DNA from: a virus
Lineage: Duplodnaviria; Caudoviricetes
DNA: 60,578 nt
Strand: one strand, 5' to 3'
Virus record (IMG/VR): IMGVR_UViG_3300006735_005646
Coordinates: 1 to 60,578 of that record
Shown: one piece after another, positions 315 to 18,830 of the stretch
Position numbering within the stretch: the stretch's first letter is position 1
How the letters are laid out: each line of letters opens with the position of its first letter
Program-made: the position numbers and the translations under genes
The notes under the pieces: generated by a model
Told to the model about the DNA's origin: nothing
What the model saw: only the letters and a program-made list of their open reading frames with translations
Databases searched by the model: none

Positions 315-454
315 ATGAGATTGCTTTCCTTGCACCACTTGCAATGAAGGCTGCTGGTATGGTAGGAAGACACCTAGCAGGGAAAGCAGTGGGTAAAATG
401 TTCAAGAAAAGCAAAACTGCTGGTGAGGATTCAACGGTGCCAAATGAACAGTAG
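311..454 (+). CDS. short ORF VNEIAFLAPLAMKAAGMVGRHLAGKAVGKMFKK..., probably the -1 frame continuation of the upstream gene
   Basis: Read by hand; resembles the QLDEIAPLLLG module of the next gene; stop TAG at 452-454. Confidence 0.5.
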   Translation: MNEIAFLAPLAMKAAGMVGRHLAGKAVGKMFKKSKTAGEDSTVPNEQ

Positions 455-455
455 A

Positions 456-1364
456 ATGTACAACCAACATCAACTCGATGAGATCGCTCCGCTTCTTCTC
501 GGCATCGGTTCTGCGGCAGCAAGGTTAGCACCTTGGGCGGCGAAAGCAGGACGATGGGCGTTTGGTGGTTCAAAGTCTGCTAAATTTGCAAGAGGTGCGG
601 CAACTGCTGCGGGTGTTCTTGGTGCTGTAAATAAGATGAAGGGTTCCGGTTCACTTGCAGGTGGAGGTGCAGAGGGTGATGGAACCAGCGGAAGAGACTG
701 GGAAGCATATAGAGATTCATCGAACACAAGGTCTCGAAAATTATCCTCCTTAATAGATCCAAGAGAGGTTGGTTACGATGGTAAACTGGGAGATGATGAT
801 GAGTCTAAAGAACCAGGTCCCCCCGAAAGACCAGATCCACGGGGAAGATACGCAAAACCAAGTAAGGAAAAAGTAATGAAAGAATCAACAATAAATGAGT
901 CATGGGCAAAAAAAATTGCAGGTGTTGCAAGAGGTGTTGCAAAAGGTGCAGGAACAATCGGAAGAGGAGCAATGGCCGCTTCAAGAATTCCTGGCGCTAA
1001 AGCAGTTGCTGGTGGTGCAGTCCTTGGTGGTGCATTAGCAGCAAGATCGAAGTTTCTTAAAAATAGAAAAGCGGACTCTTCTGCCACTTACGGTGGTGGT
1101 GGTAGCAACAATCCATATGCAAGAAGAAGTATTATGAATAGAATGACAGAGAACGAAAATGTACAAGAGGGTATCATTGGTGGTGCGTTAAAAGGTGCGG
1201 CACTTGCTGGAGCAGGATATGCAGCATACAGAGGAGCAAAGGCACTAAGAAACCCTGAGACAAGAGCAAATATCGGTGGTATGGCGAGAAAGGTTGGCGG
1301 AGCAGTTCGTGGTGGAATTTCAGCACTCGCAAGCAAATGGAAAAAGGCAAAACCAGCAGGTTGA
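456..1364 (+). CDS. Gly/Ala/Lys-rich modular internal head protein
   Basis: ORF 423..1364 with likely start ATG 456; repeated LDE/INE/VQE sites each followed by amphipathic Gly-Ala-basic helices. Confidence 0.7.
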   Translation: MYNQHQLDEIAPLLLGIGSAAARLAPWAAKAGRWAFGGSKSAKFARGAATAAGVLGAVNKMKGSGSLAGGGAEGDGTSGRDWEAYRDSSNTRSRKLSSLIDPREVGYDGKLGDDDESKEPGPPERPDPRGRYAKPSKEKVMKESTINESWAKKIAGVARGVAKGAGTIGRGAMAASRIPGAKAVAGGAVLGGALAARSKFLKNRKADSSATYGGGGSNNPYARRSIMNRMTENENVQEGIIGGALKGAALAGAGYAAYRGAKALRNPETRANIGGMARKVGGAVRGGISALASKWKKAKPAG

Positions 1365-1394
1365 AAACACAACTACATATTATGAAGATTGTTC

Positions 1395-1422
1395 TTGAAA
1401 TTTAATACAATGGAGTTATACT
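1395..1422 (+). promoter_or_regulatory. sigma70-like early promoter TTGAAA-N16-TATACT
   Basis: Sequence match upstream of the exonuclease. Confidence 0.5.
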
Positions 1423-2100
1423 ATGAATATGCAGAAGAAGTTTACACATACTAGTCCCCCCGTTGAACTCAAAGAGTTCAGAAGTTTCACAGACAATACC
1501 GGCACTCGTTTCTACGAATCGCCTGGTGGAAAGTATCCTAGTGTGACTACTGTGACTGGGTTTGAGAAGAAAGCATTCTTTGCAGAATGGCGAAGAAAGA
1601 ATCCGAAAGAGTCGAGACGAGTACTCAATCGTGGAAATAAACTTCACAAACTCATTGAGGATTACCTTAACAATGAAGACATAGATTTGCTCTCCTACGG
1701 ACCATTAGTGGCATCTTTGTTCACACAAATGAAAAGCACACTTGATAACATTGATAATATTCAAGCACTCGAAGTACCACTCTGGAGCGACACACTGGCA
1801 CTTGCTGGTAGGGTAGATTGTGTTGCAGAGTATAATGGTAAACTCAGCATCATTGACTTCAAGGGTAGTACTCGACAGAAACGAGAAGAAGACATTGACA
1901 ACTACTACCTGCAAGGTACTGCATATGCAATCATGTGGCATGAAAGAACAAACACTCCCATTCGTGAGTTCAATATCATAGTTGGATCTGAAAATGGACA
2001 ACCATGTCAAGTGTTTACTGGTAATCCTGTGAAGTATGTGCCAAAACTATACAGAACAATTCAGAATTATCACAATGCTAATCCTGCACTCCTAGTATGA
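1423..2100 (+). CDS. PD-(D/E)XK exonuclease of T4-like phages
   Basis: YPSVTTV, RGNKLH, LAGRVDCVAEY, IIDFKGS and YYLQGTAY motifs. Confidence 0.9.
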   Translation: MNMQKKFTHTSPPVELKEFRSFTDNTGTRFYESPGGKYPSVTTVTGFEKKAFFAEWRRKNPKESRRVLNRGNKLHKLIEDYLNNEDIDLLSYGPLVASLFTQMKSTLDNIDNIQALEVPLWSDTLALAGRVDCVAEYNGKLSIIDFKGSTRQKREEDIDNYYLQGTAYAIMWHERTNTPIREFNIIVGSENGQPCQVFTGNPVKYVPKLYRTIQNYHNANPALLV

Positions 2101-2106
2101 ATAATG

Positions 2107-2114
2107 TATAAATA
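2107..2114 (+). promoter_or_regulatory. T4-type late promoter TATAAATA
   Basis: Exact consensus in the intergenic gap. Confidence 0.7.
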
Positions 2115-2145
2115 GTTTCATAGAAAGCCATTATTGGAGAATGAT

Positions 2146-3501
2146 ATGAAAACATTTAGAACATTGCTTAACGAAATAATGTCTGTGAATAATTCTGGAT
2201 CAGCAGATGCGGGTACAGATTCCGGTGGTATTGCAAACATAATTAGTTCAGATGGTAAAGGTAGTGATGGTAAAGGAAATGTCATCCCATCGAAACCTAA
2301 TGCTTCTCCGCCTACTGGAAAAATACGAAAAGCAGGTATAGGTTGGGGACTCGACGCAGAACAGTATAGTAATCTTGTTGCACAAGCAAAGGCTTCTGGA
2401 ATCGAGTTTGATGAATCAGATCCTAGCAACATAATGAGAGCAATAAATCAGAAAAAACTTAAAGACTTAGTGCAATCCTCAAAGGAACTGGCTAAGTCAT
2501 TCTCCACATCAATTGATTTTGAAGGAAGAGATGACAGGGGACTCGAAGATTTAGACAAAGCAAAGGCCGACTTTGCTAAACATGCAGAATCGGTTACAGA
2601 CAAAATTCATAAAACCAATTCTGAATTGATGACGAATAGGTGGTCTAAACCAGGCGACTTCAACAAAGATAATGCAGAAGATTATGTTGGATGGGACATC
2701 AAAGATACTGGTGAAGCACAACAGAGAAGTAATCCTTCTGGTGGTCCCGATGAACCTGATGATCCCAATGACGAAGAGCAGGATGAAAACGAAGAGCAGG
2801 ATGAAAACGAAGAGCAGGATGACAATGATGTAGATCCTGATAATGACTTCACTCCTCAACAAAATCAACAGTATCGTCGATGGAGACAGGATCAACTAAA
2901 TCCGAATCAACGACCAGATAAATATGCTCCTAGATTCCCTAACGATCCTACAGAGGGTAATCCTGTTGAAACACATCCACTGGATCCCGGCTACACCATT
3001 CCTCAAAATGCTAAACCCGTTAAACCGAATTATTATCACCGTGACAGAGTTGATCCGAGTCAATTCGTTCCGTGGGATGATCTCAACAATGATCCAAATC
3101 ATCAGCAGCCGGGATATGAAATGCCTAAGCCTAAACCACCGGGATATCAAATAGCACCGCACTGGTGGAGTCCCCTACACGGTAAACCAAAGCCGATAGA
3201 TCCGAATGATCCCGATTTACCCTTCCCAGGCTTACCGTATGTGAACCCGAAGCCGGCGCCCCACAAACCAATCGGGCCCCCGCACAGGCCTTGGTGGGAT
3301 TACATCAGACAGTTCTTTAATCCGTACAACGGACCCGGCGAAGCAACTCCGGGGTTTAGTTCTCCATCCGGGCCCACATGGCCAAACTACAATCAACTTC
3401 CCAACAGGCCGAGGATGCCGTTTTACTTTGGAAAAAATGAAGGAACAATAGTGAAAAAGACTATGAAATCATTCATGGAGTACATTTCAGAAACATCATG
3501 A
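2146..3501 (+). CDS. Pro/Asp-rich low-complexity protein with CTS-like N-terminus (MKTFRTLLNE)
   Basis: ORF 2134..3501 with ATG 2146 after GGAG; acidic repeat followed by a Pro-rich C-half. Confidence 0.75.
   Translation: MKTFRTLLNEIMSVNNSGSADAGTDSGGIANIISSDGKGSDGKGNVIPSKPNASPPTGKIRKAGIGWGLDAEQYSNLVAQAKASGIEFDESDPSNIMRAINQKKLKDLVQSSKELAKSFSTSIDFEGRDDRGLEDLDKAKADFAKHAESVTDKIHKTNSELMTNRWSKPGDFNKDNAEDYVGWDIKDTGEAQQRSNPSGGPDEPDDPNDEEQDENEEQDENEEQDDNDVDPDNDFTPQQNQQYRRWRQDQLNPNQRPDKYAPRFPNDPTEGNPVETHPLDPGYTIPQNAKPVKPNYYHRDRVDPSQFVPWDDLNNDPNHQQPGYEMPKPKPPGYQIAPHWWSPLHGKPKPIDPNDPDLPFPGLPYVNPKPAPHKPIGPPHRPWWDYIRQFFNPYNGPGEATPGFSSPSGPTWPNYNQLPNRPRMPFYFGKNEGTIVKKTMKSFMEYISETS
2771..2824 (+). repeat. 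3x 18-bp tandem repeat (ACGAAGAGCAGGATGAAA) encoding NEEQDE-type units
   Basis: Seen directly; in-frame coding repeat. Confidence 0.9.
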
Positions 3502-4700
3502 AAGGGTTCTTGGAGTTCATCTCGGAAGCAGCGAAGAATGTCCACATGACACATGTTGAGGACTTGGTGTTTGAGGGCAGTAAAAGAGCAGAGGAAGCAG
3601 TTTCATTTTTGGAAGAGATTGCAAAGATGCTCGATGGTAACAGCAAGTCCAGAACAAATGCAACAGTCAAGTGGGACGGTGCGCCTGCAATTGTATGTGG
3701 TATCAATCCAGAGAATGGTAAGTTCTTTGTTGGTTCAAAGAGTGTATTCAACAAGACACCGAAGATTAACTACACCATTTCTGACATACGAAAGAATCAT
3801 AAAGGTGGAGTCGCAGATAAACTGGCAGTAGCATTGAAGTACCTGAAGAAACTTCCCATCAAAGGAATACTCCAAGGTGACATGATGTTTGGACCGGGTG
3901 ATATAAAAACGAAGAACATCAATGGTGAATCACACTACACCTTCGCACCAAATACAATTACATATGCACTACCCGTTGACTCTGATGCCGGTAAAAAAGT
4001 TAACCGGGCGAAGATGGGAATTGTGTTTCACACAACATACACTGGTAGCAGCATGTCTAAACTGTCTGCATCGTTTGGTGCAAACGTAAAGAATCTAAAA
4101 AGAAATAGTTCCGTTTGGGTTGATGATGCAGATTTCAAAGACGTAAGTGGAACAGCAACACTAACAAAGACAGAATCAAGTTCACTCTCCTCCGTACTAT
4201 CTACAGCAAAGGGTCAATTAAAATCAGCAAAATCGTTTTTAGATGAAATTGCAATGAACAAGAAAGTAATTGACAATGTAAATATTTACGCCAACTCTAA
4301 AGTAAGACAAGGTTCAACAACTCTTTCTACCAAGGAATTCATAACATTCATGAATGACAAAATACAGAAAGAAATTGACGGTCTTAAATCTGAAGAGGCA
4401 AAGAAGAGAAGAGAATCAACAAGGGATCAGATGGTAACATATCTAAATACCAAAAATAAAGAACTGGATTCTGTCTTCTCTTTACATGCCTCACTTACAG
4501 AAGCAAAGATAATTCTTGTAAGGAAATTAGAGTCGGTGAAGTCAATTGGAACATTCATTCAAACCTCGGATGGTTTCAAGGTGACTGCACCAGAGGGGTT
4601 CGTTGGTATTGATAAGTATACTAGTAATGCAGTGAAACTTGTTGACCGTTTAGAATTTAGTAAAGCCAACTTCACTGTACCAAAAAACTGGTCTAAGTGA
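3498..4700 (+). CDS. DUF6267-like protein (KxDG ligase/nucleotidyltransferase-like motif) with CTS-like N-terminus
   Basis: KNVHMTHVEDL, TVKWDGAPAIVCG, LQGDMMF, PEGFV and KLVDRLEFS motifs, typical of marine T4-like phages. Confidence 0.8.
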   Translation: MKGFLEFISEAAKNVHMTHVEDLVFEGSKRAEEAVSFLEEIAKMLDGNSKSRTNATVKWDGAPAIVCGINPENGKFFVGSKSVFNKTPKINYTISDIRKNHKGGVADKLAVALKYLKKLPIKGILQGDMMFGPGDIKTKNINGESHYTFAPNTITYALPVDSDAGKKVNRAKMGIVFHTTYTGSSMSKLSASFGANVKNLKRNSSVWVDDADFKDVSGTATLTKTESSSLSSVLSTAKGQLKSAKSFLDEIAMNKKVIDNVNIYANSKVRQGSTTLSTKEFITFMNDKIQKEIDGLKSEEAKKRRESTRDQMVTYLNTKNKELDSVFSLHASLTEAKIILVRKLESVKSIGTFIQTSDGFKVTAPEGFVGIDKYTSNAVKLVDRLEFSKANFTVPKNWSK

Positions 4701-4725
4701 AAGTTGACTGTTGAAGGAGAAAGAT

Positions 4726-5073
4726 ATGAACAAAGACTTAGTAAACAGAAGAAACAGTAAAACATGGGTTAAAATGAACGATAACAGCAAGTCCCATGTA
4801 TGGAGAGGTAAATTTGTTGAAGAACATGGTGGAGAATTTGTAAAAAAAGGTAGGTTCTGGGAGTGGCAAACTATACATAGTAGTGAATCCCAAGAGGTGA
4901 TTGAAAAGACGCCGATGTATGAGTTTAAGGATAATGAAGGTAAAACGCATTTAGTTGATAATCTAATGAAGTTTTGCCGGGAAAACGACTTAAACAAATC
5001 AGCCATCTATAAAGTGATGGGAGGCGAAAGGAAGCACCACAAAGGATTTACTTGCAGGAAGGTTTATAAATAA
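4726..5073 (+). CDS. small protein with homing-endonuclease-type C-terminal DNA-binding module
   Basis: NLMKFCRENDLNKSAIYKV...HHKGF resembles the module at GIY-YIG/HNH C-termini; no catalytic motif; AAGGAG SD. Confidence 0.6.
   Translation: MNKDLVNRRNSKTWVKMNDNSKSHVWRGKFVEEHGGEFVKKGRFWEWQTIHSSESQEVIEKTPMYEFKDNEGKTHLVDNLMKFCRENDLNKSAIYKVMGGERKHHKGFTCRKVYK
5065..5072 (+). promoter_or_regulatory. T4-type late promoter TATAAATA
   Basis: Exact consensus upstream of the 40-aa ORF. Confidence 0.7.
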
Positions 5074-5090
5074 TCATTTAGGAGAAACTC

Positions 5091-5213
5091 ATGGAATTTT
5101 TACACTCAGCACTCGGAACAGTATTTTACACAATCGTTGTATTTGTCGCTGGCGCCTTGATAGGAACGCCTCTGTGGACCTGGGTAAAAACAAAATTACC
5201 GTGGAGTAAATGA
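5091..5213 (+). CDS. 40-aa single-pass membrane peptide MEFLHSALGTVFYTIVVFVAGALIGTPLWTWVKTKLPWSK
   Basis: Below the ORF-track cutoff; AGGAG SD, ATG..TGA, hydrophobic core. Confidence 0.75.
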   Translation: MEFLHSALGTVFYTIVVFVAGALIGTPLWTWVKTKLPWSK

Positions 5214-5220
5214 TAAAATA

Positions 5221-5296
5221 AACCCCACCGACTTTCAGTTTTTGAGAGGAGGTGGTCCAGATATAACTGAACCTACGGATGAAAGTCGGTGGGGTT
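5221..5296 (+). ncRNA. candidate structured RNA: 17-bp stem with a 42-nt loop complementary to the 16S rRNA 3' end
   Basis: Perfect inverted repeat 5221-5237/5280-5296; loop contains GAGAGGAGGTGGTCCAG-N11-CCTACGG. Confidence 0.7.
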
Positions 5297-5303
5297 AAAA
5301 TAC

Positions 5304-5346
5304 AAAACTGGGGAGTGTACTTGTATGTATACTCTCCAGTTTTTTT
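5304..5346 (+). terminator. intrinsic terminator
   Basis: ACTGGGGAGTGTAC/GTATACTCTCCAGT hairpin followed by a T-run. Confidence 0.75.
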
Positions 5347-5378
5347 ATACATATAGGGATGCATTTAGGAGTCTTTAA

Positions 5379-8300
5379 ATGAAAAAAATTGTTTTTACAT
5401 TCGGTAGATTCAACCCACCTACTACTGGTCATTACCTACTTGCCACTCGCGTGAAAGAAGAGGCGAGAAAAAGGAATGCTGAATATAGGATTTACGGTAG
5501 CAACACCAAAGATCCAAAGAGAAATCCCCTCTCACCAACAAGCAAATCAAAATTCATGAAGAAGGTTCTGAACGATAGAAACGTCGTGGTGAACAAGGAC
5601 TCTGGTAATCCATATGCAGTGCTTCAGAAATTGAGTGCAGAAGGATATAGTGATGTCACTATGGTAGTGGGTTCCGATAGAGTTCCTGAATTCAAAAGAG
5701 GAATCAAGAAGTATATTGGCAAAAAGGGATACGAGAACATCAAAAATTTTGAAGTGGTATCTGCTGGTGATAGAGATCCAGATGCAGAAGGTGTTGAAGG
5801 TATGTCTGCATCTAAGATGAGAGCAGCGGCAGCAGAGGGAAATATAGATGCGTTTCGGTTGGGAGTCCCATCTCATGTGTCAAGTAAAGATGTGATGGAT
5901 TTGTTTTATGCAGTCCGAAGAGGTATGGGTATCCGAGGAAAGATTGAAGAGTCGTGGTTCAACTATGACGAGTTTGCAGAGTTTGTCAATGAACAATCAG
6001 AGTTGAACGAATTAACACTTCAGGCAAGAAGAAAACTTTCTATGCGTATGAAGAAGACTGCAAAGAAACGTGCTAGGGTTAGAAAACTTCGAGAGAAGAG
6101 AAGAAAAACAAAAGTACAATTGGTTGCAAGAGCAAACAAGCAAGCGATTAAGAAAATTCGCTCAAGGTTTCATAAGGGTAGATCATGGTCTGAAGTTTCA
6201 TTCATGGAAAGAGAAAGAATCAGCGAAAAACTAAAAAAGAAGAAGAAAGCAATTCAAAGAATTTCAAAACGACTCATTCCTGCAATGAACAAAGCAGAGA
6301 AGGAAAGACTAGATAAGGTTAGAAAACGAATGACTAGTAAAGATCCTGTAAAAGCAATCGCACCGACTAACGAACACATCGACATCATGTTTGAAGAATA
6401 CTTGGAGGAGATAGCAGTTCCGAGAGCGAGACCTAGAGACAAAGTTTCTAGTAGAGTTGCGGCACAGGATAAGGTAAATAGAGAAAAGCAAAAAGCACAG
6501 GACAGAGGACTGGATGCTAAGAAGGTAGATGCAGCAAGAAAAAGAGGTGAACGAGCAGACGGTAAAACTGATAATCGTTCTGACAAACAGAAAAAGTTTC
6601 CCAACCTACAACCAACCGATCCTGTAGAAATACAAAGAGGAGATGAGGTTGAGATTGTTCTATTCAAAGATGCCAAAATAGATCAAATCAAATCTTCAAA
6701 ACCAGTAAAACCAGGTCAAGCAAAATCAATTTCAAATAAGCCAGGATTTGTTTGTGGTGAAACAGCACAATCATTGGGTGTCAATTGTGACAAGGTTGCA
6801 CAGGCGCAACAGACAGAAAAAGGACAACAGGGACAGCAAGCACCAGAACAGGAAGTAAATCCAGAACTACAAAAGGCGTCCGATGCACAACAAATTGCTC
6901 AGTCAAAACTTAGCACTGCTCAAGCAAATCAACAACTTGCTGACATGGAAGCACAGCAGCAACAACAAAAAGATGCAAGAGAAGCAGAGTTAGCACAAGC
7001 ATACAAAAACCCATATGCGAAACAATTCGGAATTGAAAGCAAACCCCTACCCAAAGGGAAGAAAGATAAACAAAAGGGAGACACATTCCCCTCTTCTGGA
7101 CACAAGGCGGTAGATGCAGAGTTCGCTCTAGTCGCTGCTGCACATGGTTGTCACGATTTGACTGGTAAAAAAATGAAAGCATGTTTAGATGCTGCGGACA
7201 TAAGTGCAGGAGATCAAAAAATATTAGCACAGAGTGTGACACTAACAGGTGCTGGTAGAAGAATGTGGGATACTCTGGGTAAACTTATACCAGAAAACTT
7301 TGAAGCAAAACACTATGGTAAGGGTGGACCTCCTATCACTTTGTCTGACACTTGGCAAAGAAATAAAGCAGGAGATAAAACACCAAAGACTGATTTGTAT
7401 TGGGAAGATAAAAAGACCGGAGAGTCAATAAGAGCATCAATGAAAATTGGTGATGGACAACTCATGTCTGGTGGTGCAGAAGAATCCATGGCAACACTCG
7501 AAACTGCGATGAACCGTATGCGTGGTTGCAAGGGAGTCGATAAAGACGGACAAGGAACTGATTGCAAACGAACTCCAATGTCAGGTGAAGCGAAAGCAAT
7601 AAAAGCGATTCAATCAATCAAAGAGGACATTGCTAAATCATACGACAGAGATAGTCTTGGTGCGGGTATGGGTCCAACGTCATGGTGGTTGGACGGTGGT
7701 GTCGTAAAAACACCAGGCGATAGAGAACCAGATTGGTGGAAGAAGGACGGATCACCAGGCTCCAAGGGTGTCAAGTGGAAAGATGTAGTTGGTAAACCAC
7801 CAAACAAAGCAGACTTTCCAAACTACAATGAAAAGACAATCGATAGATTGAAGAATGCAAACTCTTCTCATAAGAGGATCATGGGTAATATTGAAAATCT
7901 ATTCGAGGAGAGTGAAGAGTTCAAGAGACATGTAATTTACGAATCATTAACTGGTTGTGGTAAATTCTGTGGTTGTTGTGGTCAGGATGTGTGTAATGAT
8001 TGTCAAGAGAAAGCAATGGCGACTCACATGGTTACTGCTGAGAAAGATGGAACAAAGGCAGCACTCACAGAAATCGGTGGACCGAATAGTCCGTTCGTAA
8101 CTAAACTACTGAAGCAAGTGAACGTATCCGTGCGTCTCAAGAGCAGTCAAAAAATATCCAAAGCAACCGGGAAAGAAGGAAACTATAGTTGGTGGTCTGT
8201 TCTTGGACTCACCACAAGTGGCGGATTCATGGGTGAAGAAAATGTACAGGCATTTCTTGAGTTCAATGGTGATACAGAACATCCAAAAAACCAAGTGAAA

Positions 8301-10010
8301 AAAGCAATGGAGTCTATTGGGGATGATCCACAAAAACTCCTAGAGTTCTTCGGTGCTGAAATTGAAATGGATGTAACACACGGAAATCTAGCAGACACAT
8401 TCGCAGAGAATACATCTGGTAAGCACACTGAGATTGTAATCAACGGAAAGACAACAAGAATTCCAATCGAAAATCCAGAGGATTATAGAGATTACCAGAA
8501 GGAAGCAGAAGAAGGCGAAGACCTAGACGAATCATTCCGTGTGCTGACTGAACCAGACATTCTTGACAGACTGGTAACACAGTTGAGAGATAAAGGAATG
8601 GAAAAAAATAAAGCATACGCAGTCGCCACTTCACAGTTGCAAAAACGTGGTGTTCTTAAAAAGGGAACGAACGACTTGACTACACATGGAGAAAAGAGAG
8701 ACTCGATGGGTGCCGCAGGTAGAGCAAAGGATAGAGCAGCGAAGAAGGATGGTAAGTCTCCGAAGGATTATAACTATAATCCAAGAACAAACATTGCAAC
8801 ACAGAAAGAAGATTGTGGTTGCATAAATGAAGACAACACCGCCGCAATTGCAAAGCAAGTTAAGCAAGCAGTAAAGAAGTATGTGACTGGTACTCCCAGA
8901 GTTCAATCCAAGGGTGGTAAGGTTCGTTTCATTATGCTACGAGCAGACAAAATTGACAACAAACTTCGCAAGATGATTCTTGATGTTGAACATCCAAACG
9001 CAAAGGTTCGTGATAAGAATAATATCTCTTATGGAAACATCAGCGATAGAATTATCAGTGCGGGTGCAGATGTATGGATGGATGCACTTGGGTTGAAAGA
9101 ATCCGTTCAATTGAATGAATGTTGGGACACACATGTTCAACAAGGATATAAAATGAAAGGTGGGAAGAGAGTTCCAAACTGCGTACCAAAAGGTTCTGCA
9201 ACTAAATTTGGAGAGTCAACCACACATGGTATTGGAACATTTGCAAAAATAGACATTCAAGAGGGAGCAACCATAAGTCTATATCTCTTGGACTTGATGG
9301 AAAATACACCCACATACCAACGAACAGACTTCTGTAGATTTACAAATCACTCACACAAAAATGCCAATATAACTCTCGAACGAGTTGATGGTGGTCTTCA
9401 TGCTACAGCAACCAGAGATATTCAGGAAGGAGAGGAGTTCTTCATAGACTACTTCCATGTTCTTGACAATATCGGGACTAACATGAGCATCATTGAAGAT
9501 GTTCTAAGATGGACAGAAGGATATGAAAACCTATACATTCCAGAGGATACAATCCAGTCCTTCGCACATGAATTATCATACTTTGTAAGTATAGGTGATT
9601 GCCCTGAACTGTCCGAGGAGTTCTTGAAAATTCTTCCTGAGTACACAGTATCGGAAGATGAAGATCCGGTGAAGAGAGCAAAAAGGCAAAAAGAATATAA
9701 CGCAAGACCAGAACAAAGAGCAAGAAGAAGTTCAAGAACAAATGAGAGAAACAAGAGAATAAGAAAAGGACAGGTGAAGGTCGGTGACGGGAAGGATATA
9801 GATCACAAGGACGGTAATCCACTAAACAACTCCTCTTCCAATATAAGCATAACATCTGCGAATTACAACAGAGGACGAAATAATAACAAGGGCAGAACCA
9901 ACGAAGAACATGGTGCCGGTGATATGGGAACAAAGGAATTGCTAAAAAAATATCTAAAAAATACACCCCATATGACTATTGATGCTAAGTTCAAGAAAGA
10001 GATGGATTGA
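5379..10010 (+). CDS. 1543-aa multidomain protein: N-terminal cytidyltransferase-like (HxGH) domain, basic helical module, PD-(D/E)XK-like domain, SET domain, C-terminal HNH-like motif
   Basis: FGRFNPPTTGH/VVGSDR/MSASKMR; TPKTD...ASMK; STTHGIGTFA..FTNHS..ATRDIQEGEEFFIDY; DIDHKDGNPLNN..NRGRN. Confidence 0.85.
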   Translation: MKKIVFTFGRFNPPTTGHYLLATRVKEEARKRNAEYRIYGSNTKDPKRNPLSPTSKSKFMKKVLNDRNVVVNKDSGNPYAVLQKLSAEGYSDVTMVVGSDRVPEFKRGIKKYIGKKGYENIKNFEVVSAGDRDPDAEGVEGMSASKMRAAAAEGNIDAFRLGVPSHVSSKDVMDLFYAVRRGMGIRGKIEESWFNYDEFAEFVNEQSELNELTLQARRKLSMRMKKTAKKRARVRKLREKRRKTKVQLVARANKQAIKKIRSRFHKGRSWSEVSFMERERISEKLKKKKKAIQRISKRLIPAMNKAEKERLDKVRKRMTSKDPVKAIAPTNEHIDIMFEEYLEEIAVPRARPRDKVSSRVAAQDKVNREKQKAQDRGLDAKKVDAARKRGERADGKTDNRSDKQKKFPNLQPTDPVEIQRGDEVEIVLFKDAKIDQIKSSKPVKPGQAKSISNKPGFVCGETAQSLGVNCDKVAQAQQTEKGQQGQQAPEQEVNPELQKASDAQQIAQSKLSTAQANQQLADMEAQQQQQKDAREAELAQAYKNPYAKQFGIESKPLPKGKKDKQKGDTFPSSGHKAVDAEFALVAAAHGCHDLTGKKMKACLDAADISAGDQKILAQSVTLTGAGRRMWDTLGKLIPENFEAKHYGKGGPPITLSDTWQRNKAGDKTPKTDLYWEDKKTGESIRASMKIGDGQLMSGGAEESMATLETAMNRMRGCKGVDKDGQGTDCKRTPMSGEAKAIKAIQSIKEDIAKSYDRDSLGAGMGPTSWWLDGGVVKTPGDREPDWWKKDGSPGSKGVKWKDVVGKPPNKADFPNYNEKTIDRLKNANSSHKRIMGNIENLFEESEEFKRHVIYESLTGCGKFCGCCGQDVCNDCQEKAMATHMVTAEKDGTKAALTEIGGPNSPFVTKLLKQVNVSVRLKSSQKISKATGKEGNYSWWSVLGLTTSGGFMGEENVQAFLEFNGDTEHPKNQVKKAMESIGDDPQKLLEFFGAEIEMDVTHGNLADTFAENTSGKHTEIVINGKTTRIPIENPEDYRDYQKEAEEGEDLDESFRVLTEPDILDRLVTQLRDKGMEKNKAYAVATSQLQKRGVLKKGTNDLTTHGEKRDSMGAAGRAKDRAAKKDGKSPKDYNYNPRTNIATQKEDCGCINEDNTAAIAKQVKQAVKKYVTGTPRVQSKGGKVRFIMLRADKIDNKLRKMILDVEHPNAKVRDKNNISYGNISDRIISAGADVWMDALGLKESVQLNECWDTHVQQGYKMKGGKRVPNCVPKGSATKFGESTTHGIGTFAKIDIQEGATISLYLLDLMENTPTYQRTDFCRFTNHSHKNANITLERVDGGLHATATRDIQEGEEFFIDYFHVLDNIGTNMSIIEDVLRWTEGYENLYIPEDTIQSFAHELSYFVSIGDCPELSEEFLKILPEYTVSEDEDPVKRAKRQKEYNARPEQRARRSSRTNERNKRIRKGQVKVGDGKDIDHKDGNPLNNSSSNISITSANYNRGRNNNKGRTNEEHGAGDMGTKELLKKYLKNTPHMTIDAKFKKEMD

Positions 10011-10660
10011 TGGGAGTAGATCATTGGATCGAATTGGGAGTTGCTATAGGAGCAATCGTAGTGGGAGTGACTTTTGGCATATATAAAGTGCTGAAAGGGA
10101 AAAGTGTAATGCTATTAGACACATTGAAAACCAAGGAACAGTTGAAGTTCCCCACATCTTGCTTCTGGCAAACTCACACCAGAGTCCATGAGACTCTCAC
10201 TGAATTAAGAGTCAAGACAGATTGTGCAAGAGGTCAATTGGTTCAATTCCATAATAGTGGTCATTTCTTAGACGGTATCTCGATGAAAAAGATGTCCCTT
10301 ACTCATGAATCACTCGAAAAGGGAGTTTCATCTGAGATGGGAATCAAGAAAGACTTACTTCTTTCTATGTGCATAGATGGTTTAAACTTGCTTCTTGAGG
10401 ACGATCCACAACTATACATGGTATCGGATATGGAAGATTCTTGGTGTAAGCAGTTCATGGAGAATAGTAATGTCATATCATTCTCATTCCTTCCCATTAG
10501 AAGACAGGGATTAGTAATAGGATATATCATGTGTCAGTGGTGTAGTTGGACAAAAACTGATATAATCGATATAGAGGAAGTAGTTTCTGAAATAACAACT
10601 GCAAGAAATCTAATCGAAATACAACTGGAACAGGAACTGGCAGGAACTAAAAAACAATAA
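10007..10660 (+). CDS. N-terminal TM plus GAF-like domain protein (T4 holin T-like architecture)
   Basis: One N-terminal TM; FHNSG..SMKKMSLTHE and FLPIRRQGLVIGYI GAF-like strands; 217 aa. Confidence 0.55.
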   Translation: MMGVDHWIELGVAIGAIVVGVTFGIYKVLKGKSVMLLDTLKTKEQLKFPTSCFWQTHTRVHETLTELRVKTDCARGQLVQFHNSGHFLDGISMKKMSLTHESLEKGVSSEMGIKKDLLLSMCIDGLNLLLEDDPQLYMVSDMEDSWCKQFMENSNVISFSFLPIRRQGLVIGYIMCQWCSWTKTDIIDIEEVVSEITTARNLIEIQLEQELAGTKKQ

Positions 10661-10695
10661 ATAGTAGGGTAAACCACAATCTACTGGAGATAAAC

Positions 10696-11166
10696 ATGAA
10701 AAGTTATAAAGAATTACAAGAAAATCTAAAACCAATCACCGAAGGACAAGAAACTTCCGGTGGTGCTGCTAGAAGCGCCCACAGTGATTTCGGTGTTCAT
10801 AGAATCGAACACCCAGAGCAATTAGGAAGACTCAATGCATTCTTAAATGCGTTTACTCAAATGGAGTTCATGGAACCAAAGGCAGCGATTGCGACGATTC
10901 GTCACAAACTCAATCTAGCAGGACTTGATTTTGAATGGAACAACACATCAACATACACACCAGAGGAAAACTTAAAACTTCCACTCAATAGGTATGGTGG
11001 TTCTTTCGGAACAACTCCCACACATGATCTAAGACAAGGGTTCTATAAAGGTGATAATATCTCCGAGTTCAATGGTGGAGTTGGTATGGCTTTATCTATA
11101 GATGTATATCAGGAGGATAGTGGATTGTATCAAATGGATGCAAAAATTATTCCAAACGCTGAATAG
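10696..11166 (+). CDS. conserved T4-like hypothetical protein, CTS-like start (MKSYKELQE)
   Basis: ORF with GGAG SD, after an AATAAATA late-like box. Confidence 0.75.
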   Translation: MKSYKELQENLKPITEGQETSGGAARSAHSDFGVHRIEHPEQLGRLNAFLNAFTQMEFMEPKAAIATIRHKLNLAGLDFEWNNTSTYTPEENLKLPLNRYGGSFGTTPTHDLRQGFYKGDNISEFNGGVGMALSIDVYQEDSGLYQMDAKIIPNAE

Positions 11167-11186
11167 TCAATCTTCTTTTTTTTATT

Positions 11187-11567
11187 ATGGATTTTAAGTC
11201 ACTCGACAAAAACAATTTTATGATGTTCGCAATGAAGATGTACACCAATCCTCAGTGTTTGGGTATGGATGAGTTTTACGAAGACTTAAATCGAATAAAG
11301 TATATAAAGAGGTTGCTGGGAAGATACGATAAGAAAGGTTTACTGAGAGAGAGACTAGTATTGAATCATATCATCATATTAAGTAACGTATTTGGTGCAG
11401 AGGCAAGTTCTAGAATACTTTTTCACAAGATAGAAGATAGGTTTCATTCATATTTAAAATCATTTCTAGAATATCTAAATCTACTACCAGTCCAGATACC
11501 AGAAGTAAAATTACAAGAAATTCCAACAGATCATAAAATCAATACAATGCTAAGAGGATTGAAATGA
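11187..11567 (+). CDS. conserved hypothetical protein of marine T4-like phages
   Basis: FAMKMYTNPQC..EFYEDLNRIKYIKRLL..LVLNHIIIL..NVFG motif. Confidence 0.8.
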   Translation: MDFKSLDKNNFMMFAMKMYTNPQCLGMDEFYEDLNRIKYIKRLLGRYDKKGLLRERLVLNHIIILSNVFGAEASSRILFHKIEDRFHSYLKSFLEYLNLLPVQIPEVKLQEIPTDHKINTMLRGLK

Positions 11568-12019
11568 TACTAAAAGAAAATAATTTATATGAAGCAGGAG
11601 ACATGAGCGATGCAAGTCGAGTGATCAGTGCATTTACTGTCTTTAAATTTATTAAAATTATATCCGATCCTTTCACTAAGATGGAAGCATATAAACTAGG
11701 AATCATCGACGCAAAGGGAAAATTTCTCAAGAAAGTAGATGAGTTAGAGACTAAAAAAGAAAGAGACTCAGTGAGTCCCTTCAACAGACTCATGATTAAC
11801 TTAAAGAAGGCAATGGATCGGGTTCCTGATCCAAAATTTAGGGCACAACTCAGAACTCTACCCACTGCAATGATTCTTCTCAAGGATGAAGCGGAGAAGG
11901 TAGGTGCAGATGGTGAAATGGTATTAGGTGAAATTAGAAATTATCTATTCGAGAATGGAGTTGATGTGGATAGTCTTTCAACTAACGAAGAATTCAAGGA
12001 ACTTCTTCAAGGAGAATAG
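11564..12019 (+). CDS. conserved T4-like hypothetical protein
   Basis: FKFIK...PF..EAYKLGIIDAKGK motif. Confidence 0.8.
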   Translation: MILKENNLYEAGDMSDASRVISAFTVFKFIKIISDPFTKMEAYKLGIIDAKGKFLKKVDELETKKERDSVSPFNRLMINLKKAMDRVPDPKFRAQLRTLPTAMILLKDEAEKVGADGEMVLGEIRNYLFENGVDVDSLSTNEEFKELLQGE

Positions 12020-12021
12020 AA

Positions 12022-12402
12022 ATGGCAAACAATAGAGAGATACCAGAAGAATTTCTAAACGGAGACTTTGATTTTGGTTTTACTGCGGCAGATGAGGATG
12101 AACTCAACGCACTTGTAGAACTAGATGATCCCACAACACCAGACGAAATCAAAGAGATGCAGGACAAGTTAGATTTGATTCTGCAAATGAACTCCACATG
12201 TGATGGTGCAAACCAAGTAAAAGAACAATACGATGAACTTCTCAAAGCAAAATTGGAAGAGATCGAAAAGGCCACTCTTCCTCTTCTGTTGAACCTCAAA
12301 AAGAACAAACAGAAAGATTATTTGTATTGGCCGGGAGGTCAAAGAGAAACACAATGTGAACTACAGATACAGAAGATACTCAATGTAACGAGGAATGTCT
12401 GA
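12022..12402 (+). CDS. conserved T4-like hypothetical protein
   Basis: FDFGFTA..LPLLLNLKKN..YLYWP motif. Confidence 0.8.
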   Translation: MANNREIPEEFLNGDFDFGFTAADEDELNALVELDDPTTPDEIKEMQDKLDLILQMNSTCDGANQVKEQYDELLKAKLEEIEKATLPLLLNLKKNKQKDYLYWPGGQRETQCELQIQKILNVTRNV

Positions 12403-12632
12403 TGGGATGTGGGTGTAACAAAAGAAGAAAGAAAAGAAGGCAGTCTTCAAGGATGCCTGTTTCACCAAATCAAAAGCAAGCAACAACTATCGGTGGTATC
12501 AAACTTCCTACCAATCCGTCTTTTGATGAAAGACGAAGTGCTGTTGCAAAAATAAACAACGGAAAGATAAACAAAGCAAGAAAACAAACCGTTGCTGATC
12601 GTGTGAAAGCAAGAAAAGAATCGGAAGGATAA
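12402..12632 (+). CDS. small basic protein (MGCGCNK start)
   Basis: ORF translationally coupled to its neighbours. Confidence 0.65.
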   Translation: MGCGCNKRRKKRRQSSRMPVSPNQKQATTIGGIKLPTNPSFDERRSAVAKINNGKINKARKQTVADRVKARKESEG

Positions 12633-12633
12633 G

Positions 12634-13428
12634 ATGGCAAAAACTCCTGCTTATCTTAGAGGTCCAAACGCAGTTGATGTAGAGACAAACCCGAAACCAT
12701 CAACAACTCCAGATCCAGATAATTATCCTCGTATCAACACATGCTGTCCTTGCATGGAATGTTTGGATGACTGTATCAAAGAAAGAGAGAGTGGTGGGGA
12801 AGGTTCTCCTGTTACCAATCCCTCCAACCTTAAACCAGATCCAGATCATACAGGATGTGATGCACCGGCCACTGGATGTGAAACAGGTCTTGGTTGTGAT
12901 TGTGGTCCTTATCAAATAGATCATCAAGACTATGTTCACGATATATGCGGTCCTGTAGGACCATGTTCAAACGGTGATGGTGGTTATGATAATAGTTGTT
13001 GTGAAGTCTGTGCGGATGGATACGGAGAATCATTATGTCAACCATGCGGAAACGATGCGGCGTGTTGTGAAGAGAAAGAAAGAAGAAGTAAAAAATTAAT
13101 GGATTGTTGGAGGAGAAGATACACAAGAAATCCTGCCTGCAAGGGACATGGTCCGATTATACACCCAACCGATCCAGACTCTGGACCTTGTTTTACTTGT
13201 GAAGACATAGCAAGAATGCACAATGGTGGTCCGAAGGGACATTGTAATAAAAACACAGAGGGTTATTGGAATAAAATCAAAGCATGTATGGCAAGGAAGT
13301 GTGGGTTTGCTTCAACAGAATCTGGCGAAGCGTGTGCAGATGTTGAAGTAAATAAGAGCAAACGTACAGAAACAAACCAAACTCGTTATTACGAAAGGTG
13401 GAAGATCATGAATCCAAAAGATCCATGA
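12634..13428 (+). CDS. Cys-rich invertebrate-type (destabilase) lysozyme-like protein, candidate endolysin or virion lysin
   Basis: C..ERESGG, CGPYQI..Y..D, TCEDIARMHNGGPKG and TEGYWNKIKAC motifs of i-type lysozymes. Confidence 0.75.
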   Translation: MAKTPAYLRGPNAVDVETNPKPSTTPDPDNYPRINTCCPCMECLDDCIKERESGGEGSPVTNPSNLKPDPDHTGCDAPATGCETGLGCDCGPYQIDHQDYVHDICGPVGPCSNGDGGYDNSCCEVCADGYGESLCQPCGNDAACCEEKERRSKKLMDCWRRRYTRNPACKGHGPIIHPTDPDSGPCFTCEDIARMHNGGPKGHCNKNTEGYWNKIKACMARKCGFASTESGEACADVEVNKSKRTETNQTRYYERWKIMNPKDP

Positions 13429-13430
13429 TG

Positions 13431-13438
13431 TATAAATA
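13431..13438 (+). promoter_or_regulatory. T4-type late promoter TATAAATA
   Basis: Exact consensus, 5 nt before ATG 13444. Confidence 0.7.
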
Positions 13439-13443
13439 CTACT

Positions 13444-13839
13444 ATGAAGACCTTTAAACAATTATTACAGAATTTGCCAGAAGATGTTGCCAACTCAATG
13501 GGTGGTGGTGGTTTCGGTGTAGGACAGGCAGCACAGACTTCAAACCCCAACCTTGCGGGATATGATCCTGTTATGGGACTGGGTGGAAGAAAAAAGAAAA
13601 AGAAAAAAGTACAAGAGAAATTTGCAGGTTGTGCCGTGTTCAATTTAACCAGCGAAGAATACAATAAATGTATGCGTGGTAGAATGAAATACGAAAGATG
13701 GAGTAAGAAAATGAATATGGAAGATATCAACAACCAAGATATCCGAACATATTGTCATCGAAATCCAGGTCAGCCTGTTGTTATTAAAGATTCAACCACG
13801 GGAATAATGGCATACCTTATTCCACCATCAAAAAGGTAA
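13444..13839 (+). CDS. conserved T4-like hypothetical protein with CTS-like start (MKTFKQLLQ..PE)
   Basis: EDVANSMG and RGRMKYERWSK motifs. Confidence 0.75.
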   Translation: MKTFKQLLQNLPEDVANSMGGGGFGVGQAAQTSNPNLAGYDPVMGLGGRKKKKKKVQEKFAGCAVFNLTSEEYNKCMRGRMKYERWSKKMNMEDINNQDIRTYCHRNPGQPVVIKDSTTGIMAYLIPPSKR

Positions 13840-13842
13840 AAT

Positions 13843-14289
13843 ATGCTTACATCATTTTTAACACCAGAGTTTCTTACTCTGATTGGTAGCAGTTTAACAG
13901 GATTTCTGTTTAGATACCTAGCAGAGAAGAGAAAAGATCAGAAAGAAATGTTCGAGAGAGCAATGGCACGATCCAAGAGACAGGACGAAAGTGCTGATCT
14001 CGCTGTTAAACGAGTAAGTGTTGACGCTGGTAAAATCATCAGAAGAATTATTGTTGTTACTATATTGTTCGGTACAATACTTGCACCATTCATTCTACCA
14101 TTCTTTAGCATTCCTACGGTGGTAGAGGTTACAGAGAAGAGTGGTTCATTCCTTGGTATCTTTGGTGGTAATACTAGCATCAAATTCCAAGAGGTATATG
14201 GTTATCTGTTCACCGAAGAGAACAGACAGATTCTTTTAACCATTGTAGGATTCTACTTTGGTAATGCTGCTGGAAAGGCTTCGACATGA
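13843..14289 (+). CDS. multi-TM holin-like membrane protein
   Basis: Three hydrophobic segments; C-terminal IVGFYFG as in 3TM holins. Confidence 0.55.
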   Translation: MLTSFLTPEFLTLIGSSLTGFLFRYLAEKRKDQKEMFERAMARSKRQDESADLAVKRVSVDAGKIIRRIIVVTILFGTILAPFILPFFSIPTVVEVTEKSGSFLGIFGGNTSIKFQEVYGYLFTEENRQILLTIVGFYFGNAAGKAST

Positions 14290-15297: not shown

Positions 15298-16024
15298 TTT
15301 TTATTTCCTCTATCCAACTTTTATAATATTCAACACTTGCACAAGCGTTCTCAAATATTAGTCCACCAGTCACACTGAAGTTTGCCATGATACCTATGAG
15401 TTTGTTTTCTCTGGTTAGGACTGCACCACCAGAGTCACCGAACCAGATAGATGCCTTTAGTGGGAGCATGACCATGAACTGCGGGTTTGAGATGAGTCTA
15501 CCGTAGTACCAAAAGGTGCCAGAGTTACTGTATCTCTTAATACCATGGCCATGCCCCACTGTAGTAAGAGGCATTCTCTTATAAACTGAGTCGTCAGGTT
15601 CGAGTAATTCTACGGGAGACTCATCTGATGGATGTTCCAAAACTATGATCGCTATATCGTGAAATCCGTAAACGCCGGGAATATGTTCTGTGTAATAAAT
15701 CACCTCCTTGATACAGATTTTATCACCGTCCGTTTCTGTCCAAACCAAATCTTCCTTCCCTTCTGTAACATGTGCAGCAGTAAGAACCAATGTTGGTTCA
15801 ATTAAAACACCAGTACCAATGAGTTTGTTGTTTTCTGAATAGTTAATTGAACCAACAAACTGATATGGATCAGGCCACAAATCTCTGAGGAGATATGTGA
15901 ACGGACCCGGTGGTTTCGGGGTTTCTTTTATTTCTATTTTTTGTGGCGGAGGAGTTATGGTAGTTGCTGTGCAACTTGTTAAACATAGTAAGGACGCTAA
16001 AACATATAAAATTGTCTTTCTCAT
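15266..16024 (-). CDS. trypsin-like (S1) serine protease, lipoprotein
   Basis: Lipobox LTSC; VLTAAH, HDIAII and GDSGG catalytic triad motifs. Confidence 0.9.
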   Translation of the reverse strand: MRKTILYVLASLLCLTSCTATTITPPPQKIEIKETPKPPGPFTYLLRDLWPDPYQFVGSINYSENNKLIGTGVLIEPTLVLTAAHVTEGKEDLVWTETDGDKICIKEVIYYTEHIPGVYGFHDIAIIVLEHPSDESPVELLEPDDSVYKRMPLTTVGHGHGIKRYSNSGTFWYYGRLISNPQFMVMLPLKASIWFGDSGGAVLTRENKLIGIMANFSVTGGLIFENACASVEYYKSWIEEIKNEQLLETMDR

Positions 16025-17651: not shown

Positions 17652-18830
17652 TCAGAAACTAACGCTAAGTTGTGTTCTGAGTAGATACTGACCATTGGAG
17701 TCGCCTGCATTCCAACCGGAACGATAGAGATTCCATTCAGTACCAATAGCATCGAATGCATAACCAAGAGTAGTAGTCCAACGGACGTACTTATTGATGT
17801 CAACATTCGCACCAACCTCAAGGACGTTTAGATCAGAATCGGAAACACCAAGTTTACCGTACTGATAATTAACGAAACCTGTGAGGTTATCGGTGCATTG
17901 GTATGCAACTTCGGCGTTGAAACCGTAGTTCTTACCATATCCACCTACTGCATAATCAGCAGAAACCCATGAGACTTGTGCATTTAGAGGACCGTTGCTA
18001 TAACCAAAGTCAACGGTATAAGTGCCATAATCTTCGAGTTCTGACTGGTATGCGTATGCGGCTCCCAACTGGAAACCACCACCAAAGTCAACGTCACCAC
18101 GGACGCTGATACCATAATCATTATCTACAATGAATACATTCTCTGTACCGAATCCATCATTGTATGAAACAGAGAGGTCCAACCAGTCAAAGTCCTTGCT
18201 GAACTGGACACCCTGTGATCTTCCTTGACCAAACGTAGTAGCGAGAATGGTGTATTCACCTTCAACATTATCCAATGGTGAATCGGTGAAGTCCTTATAG
18301 AACGCAGTGACAAACTGTCCTGCTTGGAAGTCAACACCCCAACCCAAGTCCATTGTGGTATAGGCGTCAACGAGTTCCATAGTGCCATTTGTATAGTCAC
18401 TAAACTCACCACTTACATAATAACCAATCTTTCCTAGAATCTCACCCGAAACTTCGAGACGAGCATAGGGAATACTGAACTGATTATTTTCAGCGACACC
18501 ACCATCGTTGTTATAACTCCAACGAGTAATGGCAAAACCACCCACGTTAACAGTGACGGGTTGTGCATCCGCCATCATCATTGTGCGTGCATCAGCATCA
18601 GCCATGACATCTTGTACCATAGCCTTTACTTCTTCGCTTCGACGAGTTTCCAACCAACTTGGTTCTTGGTTCGCATCCAATGTTGCGATCTTTGCTTCTG
18701 CTGCATCGAGACGAGCCTGTAGATCCTCATATGAAGGACCGTCAGCAAGTGCAGGTGCAGCGAATGATGCTACAACAATTGCAGCAGCAAGACCACCGTA
18801 CATCATCCACTTTTTCTTTGAAATATTCAT
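17652..18830 (-). CDS. outer-membrane beta-barrel porin (OprO/P-like, Phycisphaerae-type)
   Basis: Signal peptide (ALA), coiled-coil WLETRRSEEVKAMVQDVMADADAR, amphipathic strands, C-terminal QLSVSF with terminal Phe. Confidence 0.8.
   Translation of the reverse strand: MNISKKKWMMYGGLAAAIVVASFAAPALADGPSYEDLQARLDAAEAKIATLDANQEPSWLETRRSEEVKAMVQDVMADADARTMMMADAQPVTVNVGGFAITRWSYNNDGGVAENNQFSIPYARLEVSGEILGKIGYYVSGEFSDYTNGTMELVDAYTTMDLGWGVDFQAGQFVTAFYKDFTDSPLDNVEGEYTILATTFGQGRSQGVQFSKDFDWLDLSVSYNDGFGTENVFIVDNDYGISVRGDVDFGGGFQLGAAYAYQSELEDYGTYTVDFGYSNGPLNAQVSWVSADYAVGGYGKNYGFNAEVAYQCTDNLTGFVNYQYGKLGVSDSDLNVLEVGANVDINKYVRWTTTLGYAFDAIGTEWNLYRSGWNAGDSNGQYLLRTQLSVSF

Follow-up and report, generated by a model that had tools for sequence, protein, structure and literature searches.

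A conserved hairpin with a 16S-tail match at its core in uncultured marine T4-like myoviruses

Just behind a short membrane-peptide gene in the viral record IMGVR_UViG_3300006735_005646, a 17-base-pair (bp) inverted repeat encloses a near-full complement of the 3' tail of 16S ribosomal RNA (rRNA), and the locus raises the question why a phage should carry such a match with no gene to start behind it. The whole stretch of 60,578 nucleotides (nt; the window) that we analysed comes from an uncultured marine myovirus of T4 type; this 60.6-kb fragment is estimated to hold 33% of the genome. An initial annotation of the hairpin (5221-5296) had proposed that its plus-strand RNA clamps the anti-Shine-Dalgarno (anti-SD) tail of the host 30S subunit and reaches into helix 45. 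We find a structured RNA element that is single-copy and conserved within a narrow clade of uncultured marine myoviruses of T4 type. It would be a variant of the known RNA elements based on Shine-Dalgarno (SD)/anti-SD pairing, and its conserved, non-initiating 16S-tail match is real.

The hairpin and its 16S-tail match

The two arms of the hairpin form a perfect 17-nt inverted repeat (100% complementary, 42 nt apart), the longest perfect one among the 10 inverted-repeat pairs detected in the window. The predicted fold of 5215-5350 has an energy of -61.8 kcal/mol (z = -8.6), which none of 200 shuffled sequences equalled. The loop contains GAGAGGAGGTGGTCCAG at 5244-5260, with CCTACGG 11 nt further on. 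As the 16S reference we used the 3' end of the bacterial small-subunit rRNA gene in a locus fetched by pattern scan (L004), in which the match to Rfam RF00177 runs up to model position 1533. Against this copy, 16 of the 17 contiguous pairs originally claimed can form, the 17th requiring an extra C that is absent from it, and both deviations from a perfect 16S complement are A-to-G changes, as had been described.

The 16-nt run (Table 1) is the longest pairing run with the 16S tail on either strand of the window. A scan of 193 loci gave four other unbiased 16S-pairing runs of at least 13 nt in the related loci (743,033 bases). Since such runs occur elsewhere, a lone match carries limited weight, and it is conservation that decides the matter. 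The second-best run in the window, 14 nt long (AAGGAGGTGATTTA; 15696-15709, minus strand), falls within the gene of a trypsin-like protease, where it is read in frame as K-E-V-I; it is probably a chance match. The same protease open reading frame (ORF) also holds a perfect 15-nt inverted repeat (15791-15805/15843-15857) with a 37-nt spacer.

Conservation in relatives, whose absence would have counted against the proposal, was found: a covarying stem and the tail-complement core recur in 18 distinct variants of the element. These come from related marine phage contigs with the same gene order, and in all of them the element is positioned between a membrane-peptide gene and an intrinsic terminator. 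Protein synteny, which is blind to the RNA, provided 12 variants including the window; a loop pattern provided five more; and a stem pattern run against IMG/VR, blind to the loop, provided one more (L315). The first stem-pattern scan returned three loci (L315 as a new one, one known and one unrelated), and the second returned 26, of which 12 were known carriers and 14 were unrelated, mostly G+C-rich loci without the core. In the outer stem, 8 of 18 aligned pairs show two-sided changes and none shows one-sided changes, with 92% of the cells paired, and the covariation score was reached by none of 500 shuffles.

The loop varies in length and sequence, with AGGAGGTG[G/A]TC as the sole invariant block in the 17 aligned variants; its one variable column has G in 16 variants and A in one, and A in L315 too. 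The loops of L120 and L315 are longer and otherwise unrelated, yet they carry AAAGGAGGTGATCC or GAAGGAGGTGATCC. Contiguous complementarity to the 16S tail extends over 13-17 nt in all 17 variants computed, with predicted duplex energies of -21.7 to -32.8 kcal/mol. By our own arithmetic, an invariant 11-mer would match the 16S tail by chance, in whatever register and with G.U pairs permitted, with an estimated probability below 1e-4.

A stem of 13-18 bp that is almost purely Watson-Crick, with an internal loop and a further helix above it, might also be a ribonuclease III site, cut to release or stabilise the flanking RNA; T7 and SP82 use ribonuclease III sites in such stems. Although compatible with either strand, this explanation leaves the invariant core of the loop unaccounted for, and we give it very little credence.

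The element occurs once per contig (covariance model R1; 198,501 bases, comprising the window and 12 related loci), and the stem and core words each have a single occurrence in the window. The T4-type phages also carry promoter/stem-loop cassettes (PeSL) in many near-identical copies per genome, a repetition from which the single-copy element departs. Among more distant loci, covariance model R1 found no element in the 81 of 85 that it was run on; the model was applied to 16 of 80 metagenome loci. The 12-mer AGGAGGTGRTCC is absent from the contigs of five more distant relatives (736,906 bases, two complete genomes), and in the next more distant relatives, L039-L041, the peptide gene abuts the next gene with neither hairpin nor terminator between them. 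An Rfam search of 4000-6500 on both strands, with E values up to 10, gave seven chance-level matches, none of them on the hairpin at the gathering score. A blastn search of 5085-5400 against cultured phage records gave no real match, and no phage of known host with the element was found there.

The match to the single-stranded 16S tail is the conserved core of a covarying hairpin and not a normal ribosome-binding site. It is followed by ATA TAA, and there is no ATG, GTG or TTG 4-13 nt past GGAGG. The other variants likewise have no start codon at initiation distance. We considered whether the inner hairpin, which lies between the SD and ATG 5279, could bring this codon close enough for a mini-ORF to be started there, or at a GTG within the core. 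The first codon of the 3' arm is ATG in 10 and TTG in 3 of the 18 variants, so that 13 would have a usable start, but it is CTG in 3 and ACG in 2. Moreover, the start would be buried in the 13-18 bp stem, the frame is 25 codons long in the window against 6-7 in L032 and L023, indels of 1-3 nt shift it, and the sequence of the stem would dictate the peptide. The GTG of the core has no SD spacing, and in several variants the frame behind it is just 3-5 codons long. Because the start codon is not conserved and the downstream frames differ, the core does not serve a conserved ORF, and we regard a mini-ORF as highly improbable. The arrangement resembles the split ribosome-binding sites of genes 38 and 25 of T4, which have a hairpin between the SD and a distant start, and the phage is of T4 type as well; here, however, the start is not conserved and lies within the paired outer stem, with no conserved ORF behind it. 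We also rejected an ORF of 91 amino acids (aa) at 5089-5364 on the minus strand as coding, as 1-3 nt indels in the loop and spacers of close relatives break its frame.

Two further proposals of the initial annotation were not supported by the comparison of variants. The first was that the pairing extends into helix 45 through CCTACGG at a fixed distance of 11 nt. CCTACGG is kept in only 10 of the 18 variants, at spacings of 9-12 nt; it is replaced by CCTACAC in L008 and L009 and by CCCGCTG in L035 and L116, and it has no counterpart in L038, L117, L118, L119, L120 and L315. In the variants that keep it, the heptamer pairs with GGTGG of the core to form an inner hairpin, the apical loop of which varies in length and sequence. 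Within this inner hairpin, CAG/CUG has become AAUU/AAUU in L035, and one C.A on the plus strand, which is U.G on the minus strand, becomes C-G in L008. The second proposal read the A-to-G deviations as a sign of selection for wobble pairing with 16S rRNA. The inner helix requires a G at 5255, which is thus explained without 16S wobble, and variation limited to purines is too thin a basis.

The strand that folds

Gene order had led to the plus strand being taken as the active RNA. This part of the proposal is in doubt: a plus-strand transcript is expected from the gene order, yet the substitutions favour the minus strand. In no variant does the outer stem contain a G.U pair on the plus strand, and all its non-Watson-Crick pairs are A.C or C.A on the plus strand, corresponding to G.U on the minus strand. 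Four independent events of this kind are internal (L008/L009, L038/L118, L118 and L315) and two are terminal (L035 and L117/L119). The consensus fold of the minus strand has 17 pairs and -26.6 kcal/mol with 10 one-sided G.U cells, compared with 13 pairs, -19.9 kcal/mol and no such cells for the plus strand. Variant by variant, the minus strand gives the more stable hairpin of the element in 17 of 17, the difference being 0.2-6.0 kcal/mol. The neighbouring plus-strand terminator, only 7 nt downstream, has 1-3 G.U pairs on the plus strand in 17 of 17 variants and is more stable on that strand by 3.7-9.0 kcal/mol, from which it follows that wobble pairs do accumulate in this lineage on the strand in use.

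The flanks point in the same direction. In the 10 nt past the stem, the mean number of T is 5.8 on the minus strand versus 2.6 on the plus strand, and the number is higher on the minus strand in 18 of 18 variants; GATAAA beside the stem is nearly invariant in alignment A1. At the base of the minus-strand stem GGUGGGG is followed by UUUAUUUUAU. The inner hairpin is continuous on the minus strand and leaves CCUCCU unpaired, with a probability of 0.94-1.0 in the window type; the range is 0.6-1.0 for L035 and L116 and 0.68-0.95 for L038, and CCUCCU is partly paired in L117, L120 and L315. The minus-strand fold thus has a regular order (outer stem, inner hairpin ending in GGACCAC or GACC, unpaired CCUCCU, U tail) in the types of the window, L008, L023, L032, L035, L116 and L038, and L117, L120 and L315 differ from it. 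On present evidence from sequence comparison, the active strand is more likely the minus than the plus strand. As the element illustrates, a strand call that rests on gene order alone can be overturned once the direction of wobble changes is considered.

We tentatively favour the explanation that a leftward RNA carries, in its terminator hairpin, a mimic of the 16S tail and hence an anti-SD. The hairpin, kept in shape on the minus strand, would be the 3'-terminal intrinsic terminator of the leftward transcript, with a G+C-rich stem of 13-18 bp and a U-rich tail. Its large loop would form a small inner hairpin and then expose CCUCCU(Y)(Y)C in unpaired form; this sequence copies the single-stranded 16S 3' tail, GA(C/U)CACCUCCU. 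We hypothesize that this anti-SD-like loop pairs with the SD regions of messenger RNAs (mRNAs) and blocks access of the ribosome; alternatively, it may be a decoy for a factor that recognises the 16S tail. The plus-strand copy would be transcribed anyway, as part of the 3' untranslated region (UTR) of the peptide mRNA, and would carry a super-SD of 11-17 nt as the mirror image. We infer each of three things here: the existence of the leftward RNA, its end at the hairpin and its pairing partner.

Several observations weigh against this explanation. All genes from 423 to 14289 are on the plus strand (the remainder of the window is on the minus strand), and there is no minus-strand gene nearby. 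No conserved leftward promoter was found: the search gave a lone sigma-70-like site at 5989-5962 (minus strand), with none at that place in L035-L038 and 0-2 sites elsewhere in each. The strand call itself draws on the six substitution events, for which the two-sided chance is about 0.03 by our arithmetic if the two directions are taken as equal, and the alternative inner helices of the plus strand in L035 and L038 use 2-3 G.U pairs. In metatranscriptomes, nine runs contained 7-20% of the sampled words of 4700-5700. Contigs of four metatranscriptomes cover 4835-5224 and 5394-5425 and not the element, one of them ending at 5224, and they show neither strand nor transcript ends.

The size of the loop is a further difficulty. 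Ordinary intrinsic terminators have loops of a few bases. The element shares with them the G+C-rich stem directly followed, on the minus strand, by a U-rich tract; it differs in its loop of 37-50 nt, far above the usual size, with an inner hairpin and an invariant 11-mer. A terminator scan with a loop rule of 3-8 nt listed neither this hairpin nor the plus-strand terminator because of its loop and stem rules, and both calls rest on folds.

Hairpin loops that are C-rich or anti-SD-like are present in the regulatory RNAs RNAIII and RsaE/RoxS. An anti-SD motif is also reported for the icaR 3' UTR (PMC3868564). If the minus strand is active, the element resembles these RNAs in presenting an unpaired CCUCC-type hairpin sequence able to pair with SDs. 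It differs from them in that its 16S-tail match of 11-17 nt goes beyond what pairing with an SD needs, and in that the motif lies in the loop of a terminator hairpin.

The stem, strictly Watson-Crick or wobbling in the minus sense, and the U tract on the minus strand are also expected of a transcription insulator, in which a minus-strand terminator stands back to back with the plus-strand one, or of a repeat acting at the DNA level; the core would then be kept for some other reason, for example protein binding. A DNA-binding ORF of NUMOD type adjoins the locus and an HNH match ends the giant downstream ORF, as would suit such a role. We nevertheless consider it improbable, because a chance fit of the invariant 11-mer to the 16S tail is as rare as estimated above, because a terminator has no need of a 37-50 nt loop with the core in 18 of 18 variants, and because the 12-mer is absent from the 736,906 bases of the five other relatives.

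If the plus strand were the active one, the 3' UTR loop would display a non-initiating extended SD that pairs with the whole 16S tail and docks the 30S subunit, without invading helix 45. Such an RNA could stabilise the 3' end of the message in the manner of STAB-SD, tether ribosomes or titrate 30S subunits late in infection. The plus-strand RNA is sure to be made, since the element lies between the stop codon of a conserved gene and a plus-strand terminator, and the conserved pairing capacity of 13-17 nt described above speaks for it. Furthermore, GGAG is mostly unpaired in the plus-strand fold of the window type (0.65-0.86), the variable positions of the run are A or G opposite U, and genes of the phage use SDs of the TAGGAG/AAGGAG type, indicating that the host reads SDs. 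Against it stand the stem, which has only A.C and no G.U pairs on the plus strand beside a G.U-rich plus-strand terminator 7 nt away, and the weaker plus-strand fold in 17 of 17 variants. In addition, it leaves the U tract of the minus side unaccounted for, the plus-strand fold buries much of the core in L008, L023, L031 and L038, and the metatranscriptome contigs do not cover the element. That the 3' UTR copy on a late message, guarded by two strong hairpins, pairs with the entire 16S tail over 11-17 nt and docks or sequesters the 30S subunit is, in our judgement, a doubtful but serious possibility and the main rival of the leftward RNA.

The closest known case for such a plus-strand RNA is STAB-SD of Bacillus thuringiensis cry3A, described as a non-initiating SD that lies near the 5' end of the 5' UTR, binds the 30S subunit and, as its effect on the mRNA, blocks 5'-3' decay by RNase J1 (PMC4113751). 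With an active plus strand, the likeness would be an SD-like complement of the 16S 3' end that starts no translation. The differences are its place in a 3' UTR, in the loop of a long hairpin between the stop codon (5211-5213) and the terminator (5308-5346), and its match of 11-17 nt rather than of normal SD length. A limited full-text search of the literature, which is not proof of absence, found no phage RNA reported to bind or mimic the anti-SD.

The tentatively favoured leftward RNA and its plus-strand counterpart lead to one shared conclusion, namely that the element works through base pairing of the SD/anti-SD type. A mixed case is possible, in which the stem is kept for leftward termination and the loop for the plus-strand RNA. 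Pairing between SD and anti-SD is the main handle of bacterial ribosomes on messages, and small marine cells have few ribosomes. With an active plus strand, the phage would take hold of the host ribosome directly at the RNA level, by a near-full 16S-tail complement that has no gene to start, and the RNA could re-tune translation in small marine cells; with an active minus strand, the docking tail of the ribosome would be mimicked by the RNA of the element. In either case it would be a new tool in phage translation control and a compact part for synthetic biology, whereas a merely odd terminator would be of small interest.

Table 1. Features of the locus, in window coordinates
Feature	Position	Strand	Remarks
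TATAAATA	5065-5072	+	Not conserved in relatives
40-aa single-helix membrane-peptide gene	5091-5213	+	Listed ORF, stop codon 5211-5213; element in the 3' UTR of its plus-strand mRNA
U-rich tract on minus strand (A-rich on plus)	5205-5220	-	Directly past the hairpin, resembles a terminator tail
Outer stem, 5' arm (on plus strand)	5221-5237		Perfect 17-bp inverted repeat
Loop, 42 nt (relatives 37-50 nt)	5238-5279		Variable in sequence and length outside the core
Contiguous pairing with 16S 3' end, 16 nt, 2 pairs G.U	5245-5260	+	Predicted duplex -29.3 kcal/mol
Invariant core	5247-5257		AGGAGGTGGTC on plus (16S tail complement), GACCACCTCCT on minus (tail copy)
Inner hairpin (5252-5260 with 5267-5276)	5252-5276		Minimum-energy and consensus folds; contains 5' part of CCTACGG (5272-5278)
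Outer stem, 3' arm, opening with ATG 5279-5281	5280-5296		Inverted repeat
Intrinsic terminator	5304-5346	+	Core stem 5308-5320/5327-5339, T7 run 5340-5346; from fold
TATACATA, directly past terminator	5346-5353	+	Conserved; candidate promoter of next gene

Promoters, terminator and neighbouring genes

The hairpin had been described as part of a self-contained unit with its own late promoter, TATAAATA, which we take to be the T4-type late promoter consensus, and with a terminator. The terminator is present, both as a hairpin and as the T7 run behind it. The promoter at 5065 is specific to the window: it is formed by the final codons of the upstream ORF, and at the corresponding site the relatives show TATCAATA, TATCATTA or no such sequence, so that a self-contained unit is not a conserved feature. 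TATAAATA has six copies in the window versus 3.9 expected. Since four of the six closely precede the start of an ORF that runs in the same sense, the copy at 5065 may work in the phage of the window. Past the terminator, TATACATAT follows the T run in 15 of 17 variants, with TATACATAA in L002 and TATATATAT in L120, and it is possible, judging from position and conservation, that TATACATA/TATACATAT is the promoter of the 1543-aa ORF downstream. In the plus-strand terminator hairpin, a polypurine sequence of the GGAGAG or GGGGAG type makes up the 5' arm and a polypyrimidine one (CUCUCC, or CCCUCC in L120) the 3' arm, and in this the hairpin resembles an SD/anti-SD pair itself.

Homologues of the membrane peptide, 37-43 aa long, stand 5' of the element in 17 of 17 variants examined. 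Between the window and L001, the 40 codons of the gene show 4 differences in first, 1 in second and 15 in third positions, a pattern which indicates that the peptide evolves as a real gene; in the same pair the element differs in the flanks of the loop only.

On the 3' side, the element is followed by the 1543-aa ORF (5379-10010, plus strand), which begins with a cytidylyltransferase-like N-terminus, contains a SET domain (1310-1358) and weakly matches HNH at its C-terminal end. PHROG 455 covers both its N-terminus and the DUF6267 protein encoded upstream of the peptide gene, and the two may be fused or adjacent in other phages, to judge from this shared family. For the DUF6267 protein, a sequence search of the PDB gave chance-level matches only. 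A 120-aa ORF at 4711-5073 (plus strand) carries a NUMOD-like DNA-binding domain of homing endonucleases (PF22083, 27 bits). Its C-terminal motif precedes the peptide gene in L035 and L038 as well, and is absent in the closest hairpin-free relatives, L039 and L041, in which DUF6267 extends to the peptide gene. The NUMOD-like ORF and the pair of hairpin and terminator appear to be insertions particular to the clade, one on each flank of the peptide gene.

The DNA polymerase of the window has at most 53% identity to cyanomyovirus polymerases. A porin-like gene (Porin_O_P, Porin_4) at 17652-18830 on the minus strand has the strongest SD of the window, AAGGAGGT. Relatives of this gene were not found in the genome_contigs search, and its presence in a phage points to a Gram-negative host.

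Super-SD motifs in other viral loci

The perfect 14-mer AAAGGAGGTGATCC is also carried by 80 IMG/VR viral loci (L195-L274; for example L205, L220, L224, L240, L249, L255, L256 and L265). ATCT stands 0-5 nt past the 14-mer in 25 of the 80, compared with about 2 expected, and 4 of the 25 belong to one coding family. Several of these loci have an intrinsic terminator and no ORF behind the SD, and AUCU(CC) is able to pair back onto GGAGGU. We speculate that these loci may form a wider class of sequestered or non-initiating super-SDs. In four unrelated contigs (L226, L243, L246 and L261), the 14-mer stands ahead of ORFs of 15-18 codons that are rich in Lys and Gly.

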